Positions 44,511 through 52,255 of a DNA stretch of 64,000 nt are shown one piece after another; the stretch's first letter is position 1, and each line of letters begins with the position of its first letter. This DNA is from Gemmatimonas sp. (GTDB lineage: Bacteria; Gemmatimonadota; Gemmatimonadetes; Gemmatimonadales; Gemmatimonadaceae). Location: contig OZ257156.1 of assembly GCA_965279375.1 (NCBI GenBank), forward strand, positions 4,704,001-4,768,000. Reading direction: 5' to 3'. Made by a program: the position numbers and the translations under genes. Below the pieces are notes generated by a model that searched no databases, was not told where the DNA came from, and saw only the letters and a list, made by a program, of their open reading frames with translations.

Positions 44511-47500
44511 ATGGCTCGTCCTCGTGCTCGTCTTGCCGTTCCGGTTCCCTGGCTCGTCGACGGCGGCATTCCGCCCACGCGCGATGCCCAGTCGCGCCCT
44601 TTGCTGCGTTTGCAGACGCTCGGGGCTTCCGTGGTGCAGTGCGGCGAGCTGCGCATCGGGCCGTCGGCCGGAGTGCTCTTCGCCATTCTCGTGCGACTCA
44701 CGTATGCGCCGGGCATGCAGGTCGCGCGTGATGAGCTGGTGCATCTCGTCTGGGGCGGGCCCGACTCCGCGCGTCGCCGTGCCAGCTTGCGACAGGCGCT
44801 CTACAAACTGCGGAGCGTTGGCGTGCGCGTCGTGCTCGAGGGCGGGATGGTGCGCCTCGATGCCGCGCAGGTGGCGCGCACGTTTGCCAGTGACCGGAGC
44901 GCGACGCACTTCGAGCGTGATGTCACGCGAGGACACGAGCCGTTCGGTCCGTTCCTGCCGGGCTACGCTGCGCCAACTGCCGCGTTCGACGAGTGGATGG
45001 AGACTGAGCGTGAGAGTATTCACGCGGAGATCCGTCGCGTCCTCGTGGAGCAGTTGCGTGCGCGACGCGAGCGTGCCGATTGGACCGGGGCGGAGGCGTT
45101 GGCGCGATGGCTGTTGCAATTCGATCCACTGCACGAGGATGCGACGCTGACGCTGGCCGAGTGCACCATGCTCGCGGGGGCCAAGCTCGAGGCCATTGCG
45201 ATCCTCGATCGCTATCTCGCGGAGATCGGGCCCGGTGCGGGCGATGTGCGTCTTCCCGCCGCGCAGCTGCGGCGTCGCTTCGTGGAGGCGACACGCGGCA
45301 CGCTCTCCTTTGCGCCGACTGAACGGCACTTCGTGGGGCGCGAGCAGGAGCTGGCCGATCTGACGCTGGCGATGCGTCGCGCGCGATGGCGGGATGGGAG
45401 CGCCGTGCTGTTTCACGGTGCGTCGGGCATCGGCAAGTCCCGGTTCGCGCACGAGGTGACGAAGGTCGCGACGATCGAGGGCGTGCGCGCACTGCACGCG
45501 TGCTGTCGGGAGAGCGATGGCATGCGCACGCTGGCCCTGTTCCATGACATGCTGCCCGAGTTGCTGTCCATTCCGGGCGCATTGGGATGCACGCCGGAAA
45601 GCATGGCCACGCTACAGCGTTTAGTGGGACCGCCACCACGACGCAGCGTGGGTCAGTCGATCGCGCCGGCGAGCGGAGAGACCGCGCGAGGCGAGCCCGC
45701 GGAACCGGCGATTGGGGACGCCGTCGCTGTGGATGCGGACGAAGGGCGCAACGCCAGCGTCGGTGCTGCATCCGAAGCCGAGCTCCCGCCGGTCGCGGGT
45801 GAGCACGACGGGGGCGAGTCAGTCACACCGCGGGAGCCGCTGCCGATGGCCGGATCGATTCGACGGGCGTTCGTTGACCTGATGGCCGCGATCTCTGACG
45901 AACGGCCCGTGCTGCTGGTGATCGACGACGCGCATTGGATGGACCTGGCGTCCTGGGATGTGTTGGCGGACATCATCGATCGCATTTCGGCGCTGCGACT
46001 GGTGGTTCTGGTGATGTCGCGTGAGCCGCACGCGCGCCCCACGCGTCCGGAGCGTGTGCCGACGACGCTCCGGGTACGCCCGATGCCACCCTTGTCGGCC
46101 GAAAGCGGTGCGCAGCTGACGCGCTTGATCGGGAACGACCTCTCCGCGCCGGTAAGTGATTCGCTCTGCGCGTGGTTCGTGGAGGCGAGCGAGGGGAGTC
46201 CGCTCTTTCTTCGCTCGTTGGTGCAGCACTGGATCGAGACCGGCGAAGCGGGCGGCGTTCCGCCAACGCTGGTTGAGGTCATCGAGCAGCGGCTGACGAA
46301 GTTGTCGCCGGAAGCGCTACGGGTTCTGCAGACGGCGGCGTTGCTGGGGGAGGAGGCGAGTGTGGAGAGCACTCAGCATGCGCTCGATTTCTCAACTGCG
46401 AACATTCTGGACTCGTTAGATGAGCTTGCCCGCGCAGGGATGCTCAGAGCCTCTGAGCTCGACCGACTCGTCGCGCAAGAGCTGACCGGTAAGGCCGCAC
46501 TTCGCCGACTCACCGAGGCTTCTCGACGGCTACTCAGCCTGCGAGTCGCTGAATCGATTCAGACACGAGCGAATCTGTGTGCGCTTGGCGACGGCGGAAG
46601 ACTCGCTGCTGCAGTCGTACGAAACTTCTTGGGAGCGGGGTTACACGAGCGCGCGACTACGACCGCAGTCGATCTGGCGGAGACGTTTTTACGAAGCGGG
46701 CTTCCTGCTGAGGCACTACTCGTTTGCGAGTGCGGCGAAGGATTTGTACGCTCCGGTGTCTCGGGGGCGCGACTACGACGACTCGAGATGGAGGCGCTCT
46801 ATCAATGCGGCTGCCATTCTCGGCTGTTGACCGTCGCGAGCGCCAGCCAGACTGCATTCAGTGTGACGTCCAAGTGGGACTCGCACTATCCTTTGGATGT
46901 CCTGCGATATATCGAATCGAGTTCCACGAGCGGTCGAATCACTGACTACGGCGATCTGTGCGCGCGCGCCGTACTGATCGCAGAGAGCGAGATCATCCCT
47001 CCAGACATCAGACTGCGGGCGTCCATCACCGCAATTCGCGTTGCGAGCCACGGTATCGACTCCGCACTACCTGAGAGAGCGTATAGGGCGGCGACAAACG
47101 TGGCAGAGCGCACCGCAAACCAATTCGATGCTCAGGTCACGGCGGCACTTTACTACCACACGGCGTTTGGCAGGCCGGAGGCCGCGATCGATGCTGCAGA
47201 GTGCATAGTCGAACGCATTGCGCCGACCTTGCCAGGTCCCGAGAAGATCGCCTTGCTCGCAGATGTTGCCTACGCGTTTCGCGTCTTAGGCAGGACCGAT
47301 GACGCACTCCGCTTGTTCGAACACGTTCTTGCGGACGCGAAGTCCGACAGAATCTGGCGCACAGCTGGAGTGGCAGCTTGGTACTTGTCACTTATGGCTC
47401 TCGACAGCGATGCAGAAATCGCGCTTGCGAAGCAGTGGATCGAGCAGTGTGAGGAGCTAGCGGTATCAACTCAGGATGAGCTACTGCTCCATATCGCCGC

Positions 47501-47885
47501 TCAGCAGAGCGCGAGGATCGCGACGCTGGAAGGCGACATCAACAGGGCGCTCTCTCGCAACTCGGCATCGAAATGGCTGTTCGTTCAAGCCTCGCACCCG
47601 AAGCGTGTCGCGTCAGAACTCGCCTTGGACCTGTTCATCGCGATCACCACGCGAAATCAGCGCTCTATCGTGGAATTGCTCCCATCGGCCGCGAACAGCC
47701 TCGCGAACTTGAGTGGCGCGCTTGGTCAGGATTTCTTGGCAACACAGGTAATACGAGGGAGTCTCGCGGCCGGGAAGCCGGAGGAGGCGCGTCGCGTCTG
47801 CGGTAGCTATTTGGCTCGGCGAAGAGAACAAAGTCGACATCCCGGCTACTTGATGTCGGCGGTCTCCGCGGCCGCTGCGAGTTAG
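44511..47885 (+). CDS. SARP/BTAD + P-loop ATPase (STAND-like) + helical-repeat regulator
   Basis: N-terminal wHTH-like region (RDELVHLVWG...SLRQALYKLR), BTAD (DPLHE), FVGREQEL, Walker A GASGIGKS, Walker B LVIDDAHW.D, GSPLF, TPR-like C-terminus. Confidence 0.82.
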   Translation: MARPRARLAVPVPWLVDGGIPPTRDAQSRPLLRLQTLGASVVQCGELRIGPSAGVLFAILVRLTYAPGMQVARDELVHLVWGGPDSARRRASLRQALYKLRSVGVRVVLEGGMVRLDAAQVARTFASDRSATHFERDVTRGHEPFGPFLPGYAAPTAAFDEWMETERESIHAEIRRVLVEQLRARRERADWTGAEALARWLLQFDPLHEDATLTLAECTMLAGAKLEAIAILDRYLAEIGPGAGDVRLPAAQLRRRFVEATRGTLSFAPTERHFVGREQELADLTLAMRRARWRDGSAVLFHGASGIGKSRFAHEVTKVATIEGVRALHACCRESDGMRTLALFHDMLPELLSIPGALGCTPESMATLQRLVGPPPRRSVGQSIAPASGETARGEPAEPAIGDAVAVDADEGRNASVGAASEAELPPVAGEHDGGESVTPREPLPMAGSIRRAFVDLMAAISDERPVLLVIDDAHWMDLASWDVLADIIDRISALRLVVLVMSREPHARPTRPERVPTTLRVRPMPPLSAESGAQLTRLIGNDLSAPVSDSLCAWFVEASEGSPLFLRSLVQHWIETGEAGGVPPTLVEVIEQRLTKLSPEALRVLQTAALLGEEASVESTQHALDFSTANILDSLDELARAGMLRASELDRLVAQELTGKAALRRLTEASRRLLSLRVAESIQTRANLCALGDGGRLAAAVVRNFLGAGLHERATTTAVDLAETFLRSGLPAEALLVCECGEGFVRSGVSGARLRRLEMEALYQCGCHSRLLTVASASQTAFSVTSKWDSHYPLDVLRYIESSSTSGRITDYGDLCARAVLIAESEIIPPDIRLRASITAIRVASHGIDSALPERAYRAATNVAERTANQFDAQVTAALYYHTAFGRPEAAIDAAECIVERIAPTLPGPEKIALLADVAYAFRVLGRTDDALRLFEHVLADAKSDRIWRTAGVAAWYLSLMALDSDAEIALAKQWIEQCEELAVSTQDELLLHIAAQQSARIATLEGDINRALSRNSASKWLFVQASHPKRVASELALDLFIAITTRNQRSIVELLPSAANSLANLSGALGQDFLATQVIRGSLAAGKPEEARRVCGSYLARRREQSRHPGYLMSAVSAAAAS

Positions 47886-49207
47886 GCCACTGCCTGCGTT
47901 TTCTGGCCCTTTGCTCTTTCGATGATCTGAGTGAAGGACAGAATGCTGCTCTGCGAGTCGGCTGGGGAGAACAGTTGCGGATACAGCGGACTGCTTAGAA
48001 GCGCGTCGCAAATCATAGGATCGAACTGCCTACCCCGAAACTTGACCAATTCAGCGCGAACCTCTGTCTCCGTCATTGCCTTTCGATACGCTCGATCGCT
48101 GGTCATCGCGTCGATCGTGTCTGCAAACATGATGATTCGAGAACCCAGTGGAATTGCATTTCCTGCAATCTTGTCAGGGTAGCCAGTACCGTCCCAATTC
48201 TCATGGTGGTGTCTCACCGCGGGCACGATATCGTGAAACTCCGACAACTTTGCAACGAGCTCAGCGCTCTTGATCGGGTGGAGCTCCATTATCGCGCGCT
48301 CTTCATTGGTTAGACGACCAGGCTTGCTAAGGATTGGGCGAAAAATCTCGTGAATCTTGCCCACGTCATGCAGTAGAGCGGCGATTGCGATTCGCTCGAC
48401 CTCCGGACCGGAGAGACCAATCGCACGCGCAATAATTCTCGAATATCGAGACACGCGCTGCGAATGACCGGAGGTGTACGGGTCGCCATACTCGACGGTG
48501 TGCACGAACAGCTCAAGCAATTCTCTGTTCGTCGTCGCCAGCTGGTGCCGCACTTGGTAGAGCACTCGAAAGCCAACAGAAAGCACGGTCATCGAGAGAA
48601 ATCCCCAAACTCCCCAGTCGACGAATGCTCTCGCAAACAAGTAGACGATCGGAATCGCGACAAGATCGAGCAAGAGCGACTGAGAGTTTCCAGTATACCA
48701 ACAGCGAACGATGCTCTTGCTTTCAGCGATGCCGACCGCGGTTGCGACGGAGAAAGTATTTACGAGAAGAAACGCGAGGACCGCAGCGGAATGCGGCACC
48801 AACTCAAAGCGCACGTCCAGCTGAAGCGACTTGCCGCCGAGCGACAGGTAGAGCAGGCTCGCAACTGCGGCGGCGAGGACGAACTGAGCGATGTTAAACA
48901 GCCGCTTGATCGTCGGCTTGGGCCGGCGTAGTTCGCCGAAGGCCGCCCCAAGCCCGACCATTGCAGCTGTAGCCCACGACGGGTAGAGGACGAGCGCCGT
49001 CAGATAGGGAATGAAGGAAATCTCTCCCAGCGTATTTCCTTGCACTCGGTACCGGAATTGCGAACCAAGTAGTCCGAGCAGCGCGTAACAGAAGGATCCC
49101 AATAGCAGCGCGACGTCAATCGAAGGCTGCTGGAGATACAGACAAGCCAGCGCGGCAGCCGCAGCTGCCACGATCGCATACACGTAGGCGATCACGCTTG
49201 TCTTCAT
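47882..49207 (-). CDS. Membrane-anchored HD-GYP phosphodiesterase with multi-TM sensor domain
   Basis: About 7-8 TM segments, then DPYTSGHSQRV, LLHDVGK, HHHENWDGTGYP, ADTIDAMTSDRAYR, QFDP. Confidence 0.92.
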   Translation of the reverse strand: MKTSVIAYVYAIVAAAAAALACLYLQQPSIDVALLLGSFCYALLGLLGSQFRYRVQGNTLGEISFIPYLTALVLYPSWATAAMVGLGAAFGELRRPKPTIKRLFNIAQFVLAAAVASLLYLSLGGKSLQLDVRFELVPHSAAVLAFLLVNTFSVATAVGIAESKSIVRCWYTGNSQSLLLDLVAIPIVYLFARAFVDWGVWGFLSMTVLSVGFRVLYQVRHQLATTNRELLELFVHTVEYGDPYTSGHSQRVSRYSRIIARAIGLSGPEVERIAIAALLHDVGKIHEIFRPILSKPGRLTNEERAIMELHPIKSAELVAKLSEFHDIVPAVRHHHENWDGTGYPDKIAGNAIPLGSRIIMFADTIDAMTSDRAYRKAMTETEVRAELVKFRGRQFDPMICDALLSSPLYPQLFSPADSQSSILSFTQIIERAKGQKTQAVA

Positions 49208-49246
49208 GAGTCTTGCAAAGTGGCGCCCCCGCCGTCCTAGCTCAAA

Positions 49247-49318
49247 TCAACCCCAGACTTTAGCATCCGCCAAAGCGAACGACATAATCGCGTTCACGAG
49301 CTGGGCCAGAATTCCCAT
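49247..49318 (-). CDS. 23-aa small peptide MGILAQLVNAIMSFALADAKVWG (absent from the ORF track)
   Basis: ATG at 49318, TGA at 49249-49247, Shine-Dalgarno GGAGGTGA 6 nt upstream, ends 39 bp before the HD-GYP start. Confidence 0.78.
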   Translation of the reverse strand: MGILAQLVNAIMSFALADAKVWG

Positions 49319-49515
49319 GTTGCGTCACCTCCCATCGGGGTAAGTCACGCACGTCCCGCTCGGGGATCGCACGTGCTTTAACGAGGTTGGCTCCGCTCCT
49401 CAAACTTGGCCTGCCCGCTCAGCTCCGCTCTACCGGGAGACGGGGACGTTTTGTGAGTATCGTCTATGGCTGACGATGAAGGGTGAACGGCATGGGCGCG
49501 TGAACCACGCCCGGA

Positions 49516-50421
49516 TTATCGATCAAGTTGCATCCAGCGATTCGTTGCATTGAGCACTGCGAGCACACTGCTCGTCTCAGCGCTCTCCTCAACTTCACAG
49601 CTTCCGGTCAAGAGCACTGTGTCGCGACCGTCGCGCGCCGCAATGCTGACAAAGACGAACTCTCGATCAAACGCGTCCACCACTTGCGATCCTTCCAATG
49701 TCAACGCGCGCGCCCGAACCGACGTCGGCCCCAACGCTTCCACAATCGCCAATACCGTCGCACGTGCCGCGAGATCAATGCGAGAACGCTCGCTCGATTG
49801 ACCCTTCGCCTCTCCGGCAAATGCCCGCGCACCCTGCGACAGCGTCACTCGACACGTCAGCCCGCGCTCACGCGACCGACGCAACTCCACATCCTCGAAC
49901 ACCAACACTCGACGCGCCAGACCGCCCGCCTCACGGCTCCCGTCCGCACCCTCGCGCGCTAAGCTCGGCTCCGGCGCCCGCGATGAGGCCGCCGCCGGCA
50001 TGGAAGCAGACGCCGCGGACAGCGATGGCGCAACCGCTCCGGCGGCAAATGACTGGGACGAACTAGAGGGCGATGCCGACCCGGAAGGGGAGGCCGGCGG
50101 AATGAAGACCGTCGTCGGCGACTTGGCCGCTGACGGCACATCGTTCGCACGATTCGGGTCCAGCGTCGTCGCGATCGAGATCTTGCGGTGATTCACGCGC
50201 AACCCGAGCTGCGCAATCAAGGCACTCTCGATATTCCGCACCGTCTGCTTCGGAGCCACGGCGTCCGTCGTCAAGACGTGCACCTCGTCGATAGCCCCCG
50301 CGTCACTCGGCACAATCCGAACAGACAATACGCCCGGGAGCGTGGCGATCAGCTCCTCGGCGCGACGGATGGGAAGGACACTACCCGCGATCGCGCCTGA
50401 CGGCGCAAACGGCGGGTTCAT
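49516..50421 (-). CDS. Uncharacterised two-domain protein with Ser/Pro/Ala linker
   Basis: N-domain IATLPGVLSVRIV...IDEVHVL....PKQTVRNIESAL..LGL.V.HRKISIA. C-terminal alpha/beta domain ending LTGS........AVLNATNR, possibly LeuA-regulatory-like (from memory). Confidence 0.8.
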   Translation of the reverse strand: MNPPFAPSGAIAGSVLPIRRAEELIATLPGVLSVRIVPSDAGAIDEVHVLTTDAVAPKQTVRNIESALIAQLGLRVNHRKISIATTLDPNRANDVPSAAKSPTTVFIPPASPSGSASPSSSSQSFAAGAVAPSLSAASASMPAAASSRAPEPSLAREGADGSREAGGLARRVLVFEDVELRRSRERGLTCRVTLSQGARAFAGEAKGQSSERSRIDLAARATVLAIVEALGPTSVRARALTLEGSQVVDAFDREFVFVSIAARDGRDTVLLTGSCEVEESAETSSVLAVLNATNRWMQLDR

Positions 50422-50529
50422 GCCGAAATTCACTGGAATCGACAGGAAGGACTCCGCAGGTGGATCGGACCAGCGTTGGTCGATCTGTTCTCGACTGTCA
50501 CAATATGTGGTCGAGTTCGCTGGTCGGCA

Positions 50530-50545
50530 AGCCAGAATAGTGCCC
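50530..50545 (-). promoter_or_regulatory. sigma54 (-24/-12) promoter
   Basis: Minus strand GGGCACTATTCTGGCT, with GG and GC at the exact spacing of TGGCAC-N5-TTGC. About 110 bp upstream of the 50421 start, next to a sigma54 activator gene. Confidence 0.65.
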
Positions 50546-50581
50546 AAACCATTGTATGACATGCAGCTACCAGATTGCACC

Positions 50582-52255
50582 TCAACCTTCGTCGAGATCC
50601 AGCCCTGCCCCCCCCTCGTATTCTCGCAATTTGCGATACAAAGTCCGCTCGCCAATCCCCAATCGCTCGGCCGCTTTACGTCGATTCCCGCTCGCATCCC
50701 GGAGCGCCGCCTCGATGGCCGTGCGCTCGATCTCGGCCATGGTCATCCCAGGCCCCAAGGTGATCACGGTCGGCGGCGGCTCCTCATCACGCGGCGCGAT
50801 CCCGCGCAGCCCCCCCATCACAGAGCCGATCTCCACCAAGCCAGCTGCCGCGCCAGCCGTCCCGCTGCGAACGTCCCCCATCCACCCCGGCGCCATCATG
50901 CGAGGGTCCACGCGCGGATCCACCCGCGACTCCTGATCCATCCGGCGCCGCAACTCCTCCACCTGCAGCTTCAGCTCGACAAGCGAGCGTACGATAAACT
51001 CGAGCTCACGCCCCTGCGCACGCTCACCCTCGCGCACGATCGGACCGACATGGACGGGCAGTAGCCGACGTCCGCCCGCATCGCGGATCGCGCGAGGAAT
51101 GTCCTCCGCCACGATCTCGCGCCCGGGCGCCAGCACGACCATGCTCTCGACCAGATTGCGCAGCTCACGCACGTTGCCGGGCCACGGATACTCGACCAGC
51201 AACGCCAATGCGTCCGCCGACAGCCCATGAAACGGTCGATCATGCATCCGTGAGAATTCGGCGACGAATCGACGCACCAAGAGCGGAATATCGTCACGCC
51301 GCTCACGCAGAGGCGGCAGATAGATCCGCAGCACATTGAGCCGGTAGTACAGGTCGGCGCGGAAGCCACCCTCCTCCACATGCTCGCGCAACGGACGGTT
51401 AGTCGCCGCCACCACGCGCACGTCCACCGGAATCGCCTGCCCGCCGCCCACGCGCGTCACTTCACGCTCTTCGAGCACGCGCAACAGCTTCACCTGCGTG
51501 CTCGACGGCACCTCACCGATCTCGTCGAGAAAGAGCGTGCCCGTGTCGGCCAACTCGAACCGGCCAAGCCGACGCTCCGCCGCGCCCGTGAACGCGCCCT
51601 TCTCGTGCCCGAACAGCTCGCTCTCGAGCAACGTGTCCGGCAGCGCGCCCACGTTCACCGCGATGAACGGCTTGCCACGGCGCGGACTCAAGCGATGAAT
51701 CGCGCGCGCCACCAGCTCCTTGCCAGTGCCGCTCTCACCCTCGATCAGCACCGTGCTCGACACCGGCGCGATCTGCTCGATCTTCACCAGCACTTCGCGA
51801 ATGGCCTCCGACTCACCGACCAATCCGGTCAGCTGCGCGAGTCGCTGCCGCTCGAGCCGCCGACGGATCCCGTCCACGACCTCGTCGAGCGCGATCGGCT
51901 TGCTCCAGGTCTCCACGTAGCCCACGTCGCGCACACGCTCCTGCACCACAGGATCGCTCACGTCGGTGAAGCCCACCACCGGCACACCATCCCACAGCTG
52001 CTGCCGCACCAACGCCACGTTCGCGCTGTCGAGCAGCGCGCCCGTCAGCACGAGCACATCCGGACGCGCGCGACGCAGATCGCCGCGCACGTCGTCCATC
52101 GGCGAAATCGTGACGGTGGTGATCCCCAACCCTTCGAGCGCCGCATTGAGCCGCACAGCCGGCTCCACGTCGGTCATCAAAATCGCGACGACGCCCGACT
52201 CGTTGTCCTCCGTACTGCCGCGCCGCACGACCGCGGTGCGCGACCGTTCGCTCAC
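50582..52255 (-). CDS. sigma54-dependent activator (bEBP) with degenerate receiver and Fis HTH
   Basis: [63 protein letters not shown] overlap start. Receiver reads PDVLVLTG, with Thr in place of Asp. Confidence 0.93.

Follow-up and report, generated by a model that had tools for sequence, protein, structure and literature searches.

Which signal acts on the membrane-bound HD-GYP protein encoded in a 64,000-nucleotide stretch of a complete Gemmatimonas sp. genome (assembly GCA_965279375.1, contig OZ257156.1; this whole stretch is termed the window below), and how are the genes upstream of it connected with its activity? The sensor gene (47882–49207, on the minus strand like all features below unless another strand is given) is preceded by an open reading frame (ORF) of only 23 codons (49247–49318), a gene for an unknown protein, here called Unk (49516–50421), and a gene for a bacterial enhancer-binding protein, bEBP (50582–52252). 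The original prediction combined these genes and a -24/-12 promoter into a sigma54-controlled peptide and cyclic-dinucleotide signaling system, and all five co-oriented elements that it listed are present in the sequence, at their places on the minus strand.

As judged from the loci compared, the conserved core is, in this order, Unk, a structured leader RNA, the micro-ORF and the sensor, which comprises a MASE9 membrane domain and an HD-GYP domain. The bEBP is probably a lineage-specific upstream neighbor lying outside this module. In the reading that we prefer, and to which we assign a probability of about one half, a short RNA gated by Unk would yield a membrane peptide, and this peptide would serve the orphan MASE9 sensor as partner or ligand and set its phosphodiesterase activity.

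Conservation of the Cassette

The core occurs in Gemmatimonadota, Bacillota, Armatimonadota, Actinomycetota, Chloroflexota and Sumerlaeota. Within the home phylum, a draw of 61 genomes gave 30 loci anchored on MASE9, of which 29, including that of the window, could be evaluated, the remaining one being located at a contig end; all 29 carry Unk upstream together with an ORF of 17–29 codons with a strong ribosome-binding site. The distant sample comprised the best 80 of 584 Unk-anchored loci from other groups, 70 of them with enough downstream DNA. An HD-GYP gene is located within 1.7 kb of Unk in 66 of these 70 (32 Bacillota, 21 Armatimonadota, three Sumerlaeota, two Actinomycetota, one Chloroflexota, one labeled Pseudomonadota and six unplaced), and a peptide call was made in 65, one of them doubtful (L071), with two misses visible by eye (L074 and L101). 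The recurrence across phyla of a neighborhood of unknown protein, micro-peptide and membrane HD-GYP protein, as initially proposed, is thus borne out.

Three of the 70 distant Unk loci are without peptide, leader and sensor. Among 29 Bacillota loci anchored on MASE9, 22 have both Unk and the peptide, one has the peptide without Unk and six have neither. The profiles of MASE9 and of DUF5317, a domain found in a downstream neighbor discussed below, both matched in the Thermus and Thermotoga control genomes; searching 40 genomes pre-selected as negative with the MASE9 profile, without a positive control, gave no match. In MASE9-negative genomes, 15 of 18 full-length Unk loci (L255–L269) hit a contig break at most 800 nt downstream, four of them inside the peptide gene, and the sensor region therefore often fails to assemble or bin.

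The Peptide Gene

The micro-ORF is unannotated, preceded by the ribosome-binding site GGGAGGTGA and separated by a 39-nt gap from the HD-GYP gene, in agreement with its first description. Its presence at every evaluable locus of the phylum is far above chance, and the ratio of nonsynonymous to synonymous polymorphism (pN/pS) over 15 copies from the genus is 0.47 in frame vs. 0.97 and 1.43 in shifted frames. On this pattern of conservation, it is almost certainly a real peptide gene. Like small regulators of the MgrB/SafA type, it is a conserved hydrophobic ORF of less than 50 codons. The predicted product is amphipathic (hydrophobic moment 0.32 vs. 0.18 for shuffled sequences). Its characterization as a Trp-ending peptide is correct for the region and not for the last residue: Trp is present within the last four residues of 60 of 67 Gemmatimonadota peptides and is final in only 17 of them, and the window peptide ends with Trp-Gly. 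Neither the peptide nor MASE9 has a paralogue in the host genome, where both are present in single copy.

Two types of peptide were distinguished. Those of Gemmatimonadota are amphipathic, acidic or neutral, and have no basic N-terminal region (mean charge -0.33 over the first eight residues). Those outside this phylum, the type found with DUF5317, are similar to signal peptides with a short tail, with a mean charge of +1.85 over the first eight residues; an xAGG/xAGA-type motif is present in 38 of 52 of them and in 0 of 67 within Gemmatimonadota.

The MASE9-HD-GYP Sensor and Its Proposed Pairing with the Peptide

The sensor (441 aa) matches MASE9 with 33 bits, above the Pfam cut-off of 24.3, and HD_5 with 121 bits. 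The motifs HD, KPG, HHExxDGxGYP, DxxDAM and RxYR are intact, so the earlier description of a multi-spanning HD-GYP protein with complete catalytic motifs stands, and its membrane part is now assigned to MASE9. Among 58 relatives, HD and RxYR are present in all and the GYP motif in 54. The RxYR motif (RAYR in the window) indicates that cyclic di-GMP (c-di-GMP) is the substrate, and an apparent Tyr at the position where trinuclear enzymes have the Glu of the third metal points to pGpG as the product. The sensor therefore probably hydrolyzes c-di-GMP to pGpG. The host genome contains 18 GGDEF matches. MASE9 has been predicted by Galperin and Chou (10.1101/2021.11.05.467447) to bind a ligand within the membrane; the main text of that work names no ligand, and the word "peptide" has no occurrence in it.

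MASE9 is the most variable part of the cassette (mean distance 0.69, compared with 0.50 for Unk and 0.38 for HD-GYP) and is low in GC in 15 of 15 loci. In 26 disjoint nearest pairs, the six residues preceding Trp track MASE9 (rho 0.91; partial 0.76) more closely than Unk (0.65) or the HD-GYP domain (0.78). A partial Mantel test over 53 de-duplicated loci linked the tail with MASE9 when Unk and HD were controlled (r 0.11, p 0.017), and the links with Unk or HD were not significant. Co-folding of a natural 35-aa homologue, not the window peptide, with its own MASE9 gave a score of 0.34 vs. 0.00 for the best control; the runs agreed in at least 88% of contacts, and the predicted local distance difference test (pLDDT) of the partner was at least 59. 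Of the solved pairs, 116 of 157 attained the co-fold mark, as did two of 215 mismatched ones, and the result is weak because the scores at or below 0.60 include 18 of the 157 solved pairs and both mismatched ones.

Together with the persistence of the peptide beside MASE9 described below, the tracking and modeling make it likely that the peptide acts on MASE9. The proposal of a ligand or intramembrane modulator of the phosphodiesterase is thereby kept in the form of a MASE9 partnership and detached from the sigma54 frame in which it was made.

The Leader RNA

The region between Unk and the sensor encodes an RNA of about 225 nt that contains AGCG repeats, a hairpin with AGCG in its loop and a long helix, P0, enclosing the ORF. 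In the window, the 5′ strand of P0 (49436–49448) is followed by three AGCG repeats external to the hairpin (49394–49429, with repeats at 49429, 49419, and 49397), the hairpin itself (49343–49377), whose loop carries the fourth AGCG (49360), the Shine-Dalgarno site of the micro-ORF (49325–49333), able to base-pair with the hairpin's 3′ side, the peptide gene, and the 3′ strand of P0 (49224–49237), located 10 nt past the peptide stop and 17 nt ahead of the sensor start.

The stretch from Unk to the peptide has about four AGCG motifs per 130 nt, compared with about one in shuffled sequences, and at least three copies are present in 72 of 73 Gemmatimonadota leaders and 53 of 56 distant leaders (these counts, and the tally of 130 leaders given next, may include one locus from an unpublished genome). 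In 19 loci (18 from the genus and one from the family), 96.7% of cells of the hairpin at the last AGCG are paired, and seven of its 13 pairs show two-sided changes; none of 500 shuffles reached such pairing, and slid controls were far lower. Across groups, this hairpin beats all eight shuffles in 61 of 130 leaders vs. about 14 expected by chance, while that at the first AGCG does so in 32. P0 joins the 5′ end of the leader with bases just past the peptide stop codon; cognate strands score 29.7, 29.1, and 27.3, compared with 21.1, 18.3, and 17.9 for non-cognate ones, and rank among the top 10% in 86 of 139 loci. The covariation and cognate-pairing tests indicate that the leader is very probably a structured RNA. 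A helix masking the ribosome-binding site can also form (90% of cells paired, +1 slide), with no covariation.

No Rfam match to the leader was obtained at E up to 10 for the window or at the gathering score in 14 distant loci, and RNAalifold on unanchored alignments reported little or no structure. A scan of the genome for further AGCG leaders gave 136 clusters vs. 413 in the reverse control, the sole convincing one being the leader described here. In metatranscriptome X1, the only contig identical to an 8-kb stretch around the cassette covers positions 49230–49427 (198 nt, depth 2.7, strand not given), inside P0, where a piece of this length would land about one time in 90. Being one low-depth contig from one study, without ends or strand, it hints only weakly at a short RNA. 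Elsewhere on the 8-kb stretch, X1 has no identical contig, which is not evidence that transcription is absent.

The position of the 3′ strand of P0 just ahead of the sensor start, a start which in the genus is without a clear ribosome-binding site of its own, suggests that the micro-ORF could be mainly a leader ORF, whose translation melts P0 and licenses translation of the sensor or read-through, its product mattering little; the U-rich tracts past P0 in several Bacillota loci also fit this role. Yet the peptide is kept where these RNA elements are gone. P0 has been lost along with AGCG in eight Actinomycetota loci, which, with 0–1 AGCG and no P0, retain the peptide beside MASE9; it is likewise kept with MASE9 in the Bacillota locus L299, where Unk and the RNA are absent, and has even been duplicated in tandem at L159 and L167. 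The constraint acts at the protein level, the distance from the peptide stop to MASE9 exceeds 250 nt in nine of 142 loci, and the co-fold of the homologous pair, although weak, also speaks for a role of the product. We consider it unlikely that the ORF serves mainly as a leader ORF; this role and that of the peptide product are not mutually exclusive.

A short amphipathic ORF on an RNA that a long-range helix closes and whose ribosome-binding site can be masked presumably resembles the mRNAs of type I toxins. The peptide could then be a type I-like membrane toxin or bacteriocin silenced by 5′–3′ pairing, and the sensor a linked immunity or monitoring gene. The fixed chromosomal linkage to an intact signaling enzyme across phyla, the single genomic copy and the acidic or neutral character of the peptide make this explanation very improbable.

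Several variants of the arrangement were observed. In one family (L021, L022, L034, L038, L042–L044, L048, L049, and L060), a helix-turn-helix and receiver gene is located between Unk and the AGCG leader. In several Actinomycetota (L235, L237, L238, L241, and L244), Unk is divergent from the peptide and the AGCG leader is on the peptide strand. At L156, the AGCG leader and Unk are on different contigs.

Unk as a Candidate RNA-Binding Protein

Unk (301 aa) belongs to no Pfam family and has no NCBIfam match above cut-off; no Pfam match below E 0.01 was found with the protein alone or with 17 aligned members. The family comprises 2,610 representatives at 50% identity. Its reported two-domain organization agrees with the structural model, which predicts two confident domains joined by a disordered low-complexity linker. 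The N domain is modeled as an alpha-beta-beta-alpha-beta fold, similar to the CDF C-terminal, BolA-like and ring-building folds at Z 7–9, and keeps conserved His, Lys and Arg residues. The C domain is predicted to adopt the regulatory fold of LeuA/CimA (Foldseek E 8e-5; VIA Z 9.3, root-mean-square deviation 3.2 over 110 residues). Stand-alone copies of the C domain, of about 150 aa, are encoded elsewhere in the host genome (G000:C1:4490432–4490944, minus strand) and in many relatives (L271–L281).

The original prediction confined itself to an uncharacterized protein and missed a candidate RNA-binding role, to which the distribution of the leader points. In Actinomycetota anchored on MASE9, Unk is present in eight of eight genomes with an AGCG leader vs. 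one of eight AGCG-negative genomes (Fisher p 0.0014, overstated by kinship). Among Bacillota leaders adjacent to Unk, 19 of 22 contain at least three AGCG, one contains two and two contain 0–1. AGCG conforms to the A1/G4 rule known from ANTAR sites, and ANTAR proteins were therefore tested as its binders; they were rejected, as the motif does not track ANTAR genes: these are missing from 12 of 35 AGCG-positive genomes, some of them 99–100% complete, and present in seven of 11 AGCG-negative ones. CsrA was found in four of five genomes checked. In the genomes sampled, the leader RNA tracks Unk, not ANTAR, and it is somewhat likely that Unk binds this RNA.

Promoter and Upstream bEBP

The bEBP consists of a receiver-like N domain missing the phospho-accepting Asp, an AAA+ domain (Sigma54_activat) with Walker A, Walker B and the expected intact GAFTGA motif, and a Fis-type helix-turn-helix (HTH_8). 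Between it and Unk, a -24/-12 match with GG-N10-GC spacing and a -12 box TGGC is present at 50531–50545, where a match of this quality is expected by chance 0.002 times per 160 nt. The cassette could accordingly be a sigma54 operon switched by the neighboring bEBP, as first proposed; rpoN is present in the genome, and synteny with the bEBP is kept in 14 of 20 regions fetched. A CAA-N4-TTG palindrome (50546–50560 in the window), a possible regulator site which would also suit such an operon, is located ahead of the -35 box in most loci of the genus.

The motif itself is real, but the site is not conserved. A match of equal quality occurs in no other locus of the genus, and any GG-N10-GC is found in six of 19 genus loci vs. 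about five expected from its genome frequency. Abutting it, a sigma70-type promoter of Unk (TTGCCG, 17 nt, CATATT; 50502–50530) follows the pattern TTGCNN-17-CA[TG]ATT, with fixed 17-nt spacing, in 19 of 19 genus loci, and TTGAC-type boxes are present in order-level relatives. No bEBP gene was found within 3 kb upstream of Unk in the 67 distant loci that have at least 2.5 kb of upstream DNA, and the cassette is without an adjoining bEBP in four further loci (L222, L223, L226, and L227). Because the site is not kept, the sigma70 promoter is constant and the bEBP is absent at a distance, control of the module by sigma54 is unsupported; we reject it as highly improbable.

Neighboring Genes

The sensor gene is located tail to tail with a gene on the plus strand (44511–47885) for a protein composed of a SARP-like winged helix-turn-helix/BTAD region, a STAND NTPase and TPR repeats. 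This neighbor is kept in 16 of 17 loci of class Gemmatimonadetes (L208–L225), chosen for long contigs with downstream DNA; in the 17th, an insertion sequence parts it from the sensor. Its C-terminal TPR half is low in GC and very variable, with 24–37% identity within the genus. No STAND match was found in the 80 distant loci. As these loci mostly keep AGCG, and the hairpin shows covariation of RNA type, AGCG repeats as DNA boxes of a SARP regulator were ruled out.

Outside Gemmatimonadota, a DUF5317 gene follows the cassette in 35 of 57 distant loci; none of the 61 Gemmatimonadota genomes has DUF5317 above cut-off. The protein carries invariant Asp and Asn residues, and its invariant Gly/Asn/Asp pattern is reminiscent of signal peptidase II, a likeness unsupported by the searches. 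Foldseek, VIA-align, hhalign, PDB sequence search and Atlas gave no support for a protease of this type: the hhalign probability against LspA was 1.4%, LspA was not among the fold matches listed, and the confident model (pLDDT 94) had no clear match. The host genome itself encodes two tandem signal peptidase II genes (G000:C1:3501490–3502505) and a third divergent copy at 176815–177222.

These neighbors bear on the possibility that the ORF encodes a pre-pheromone, whose cleaved Trp-containing tail, released by neighboring cells, is sensed via MASE9 or the TPR region of the STAND protein, providing strain-specific c-di-GMP signaling. The signal-peptide-like peptides with their xAGG/xAGA motif, the DUF5317 gene following them with its invariant Asp and Asn, the high variability and low GC of MASE9, the contig breaks that end most Unk loci of MASE9-negative genomes, and the adjoining STAND gene with its diverse TPR half are all compatible with such a role. 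The window peptide, in contrast, has neither the basic N-terminal region nor the motif, DUF5317 has no match above cut-off in the 61 genomes of its phylum and showed no protease homology, the tail does not covary with the TPR region (partial -0.12), and no exporter is linked. A pre-pheromone is therefore quite unlikely, slightly more so than the leader ORF.

Other neighbors were noted at single groups of loci. In two distant Gemmatimonadota (L226 and L227) and one Armatimonadota locus (L073), the HD-GYP gene is followed by a co-oriented B12-binding radical SAM gene, which possibly encodes a peptide-modifying enzyme. In five Armatimonadota loci (L061, L063, L064, L082, and L101), the cassette carries two HD-GYP genes, and a PMT-type glycosyltransferase or a pilus ATPase with an MshEN domain, candidate outputs of c-di-GMP, is encoded after it. 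A raiA RNA (L099:761–997) precedes Unk by about 5 kb in a Coriobacteriia locus.

Proposed Mechanism

In the preferred reading, a membrane c-di-GMP phosphodiesterase is controlled in two layers. The sigma70 promoter would drive Unk and the downstream unit, yielding an RNA closed by P0 that holds the AGCG repeats, the AGCG-loop hairpin, the strong ribosome-binding site and the micro-ORF. The N domain of Unk would bind the AGCG sites and set the amount of peptide, perhaps in response to a small ligand in the LeuA-like C domain. The peptide would insert into the membrane as an amphipathic helix, and its Trp-containing tail might bind MASE9. Binding would switch the HD-GYP domain, which turns over c-di-GMP, probably into pGpG, and tail and MASE9 would diversify jointly into matched variants. 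Each interaction in this scheme, and its direction, is what we infer from the genes, their order, the RNA structure, the folds and the intact motifs.

Several observations weigh against this scheme. Some MASE9 loci have no peptide, namely six of the 29 in Bacillota and several in Actinomycetota. Folding of the whole 266-nt region does not surpass that of shuffles (z -0.95), and a crude strand test of G-U vs. A-C gave an uninformative 88 vs. 96. The Unk N domain has a common fold, whose best matches are metal binders and not RNA binders. Of the AGCG-negative Actinomycetota genomes, four look closely related, and the test in that phylum therefore comprises fewer than 16 independent cases; two Bacillota loci with adjoining Unk and peptide (L287 and L308) have only 0–1 AGCG, and nine Armatimonadota loci combine Unk with fewer than three. 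The co-evolution signal is confounded, because the peptide and MASE9 genes are adjacent and co-transfer can mimic it. The N-terminal helix of the peptide tracks MASE9 too in the pairs (partial 0.48), and in a subset of 15 loci the tail follows the HD-GYP domain (rho 0.76) over MASE9 (0.69; partial 0.15, p 0.14). The co-fold, finally, is weak and concerns a homologue of the window peptide.

A wider generalization is conceivable, though doubtful: a widespread form of peptide signaling with a c-di-GMP phosphodiesterase as the receptor, in which MASE9 would sense strain-specific peptides made from a discrete small RNA, a ligand-responsive Unk family reading AGCG would act as the gate, and DUF5317 or SARP-STAND-TPR proteins would be interchangeable accessories. 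If the matched variants act between cells, communication by peptides would here be linked to c-di-GMP turnover directly, with no two-component system in between. The cassette itself provides a candidate input for MASE9, an orphan sensor of Streptomyces, Thermotoga, Thermus and many Bacillota, and adds a probable structured RNA class of at least six phyla that Rfam does not contain, as well as a protein family without a Pfam entry that is a candidate RNA binder. Its cultured members include, for example, Gemmatimonas, Desulfosporosinus and Symbiobacterium.

Comparison with Known Systems

No description of the module was found in the literature searched, whose scope excluded most subscription papers and all supplements, the latter being places where an RNA motif could be listed; the main text of PMC5737381 contains neither HD-GYP nor AGCG. 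The domain architecture of the window sensor is the same as that of MASE9-HD-GYP proteins TM1467 of Thermotoga maritima and HdgA/HdgB of Streptomyces venezuelae. HdgA and HdgB are membrane proteins whose mutants were without a developmental phenotype, for which the authors suggest missing activating signals (PMC6205966). Unlike the cassette of the window, TM1467 and HdgA/HdgB are presented in the accessible portions of these accounts with no mention of an adjoining peptide, leader RNA, Unk or DUF5317 (10.1101/2021.11.05.467447; PMC6205966).

The presence of a small hydrophobic protein beside a membrane signaling enzyme resembles MgrB and SafA with PhoQ (PMC2789325; PMC8404706). The cassette differs in that the target is a c-di-GMP phosphodiesterase and the peptide gene is adjacent and embedded in RNA, its product being half as long, amphipathic and only predicted to bind. 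In agr and com systems, a peptide gene is located beside a polytopic sensor with a hypervariable membrane part that varies with the peptide. The window peptide gene is likewise found beside a variable membrane sensor; unlike agr, the locus, with HD-GYP, Unk, STAND and DUF5317 as neighbors, has no histidine kinase, response regulator output, AgrB or ABC exporter.

Among regulated RNAs, ANTAR sites consist of two hairpins with 3-bp stems and 6-nt loops, with A as the first and G as the fourth base (PMC3369931). AGCG has the same A1/G4, and the leader is also proposed to be controlled by a protein. It differs from ANTAR RNAs by one long hairpin and mostly unpaired AGCG; a stable hairpin contains the first AGCG far less frequently than the last. 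The Unk C domain shares the fold of LeuA/CimA, but at 14–19% identity and without the catalytic TIM barrel. Leaders bound by CsrA/RsmA and TRAP carry short repeats near the ribosome-binding site, with a GGA or (G/U)AG core. The leader of the cassette is similar to them in having short repeats, probably protein sites, near the ribosome-binding site, and is distinguished by its invariant AGCG core and by its candidate binder, an unrelated protein encoded by the adjoining gene.

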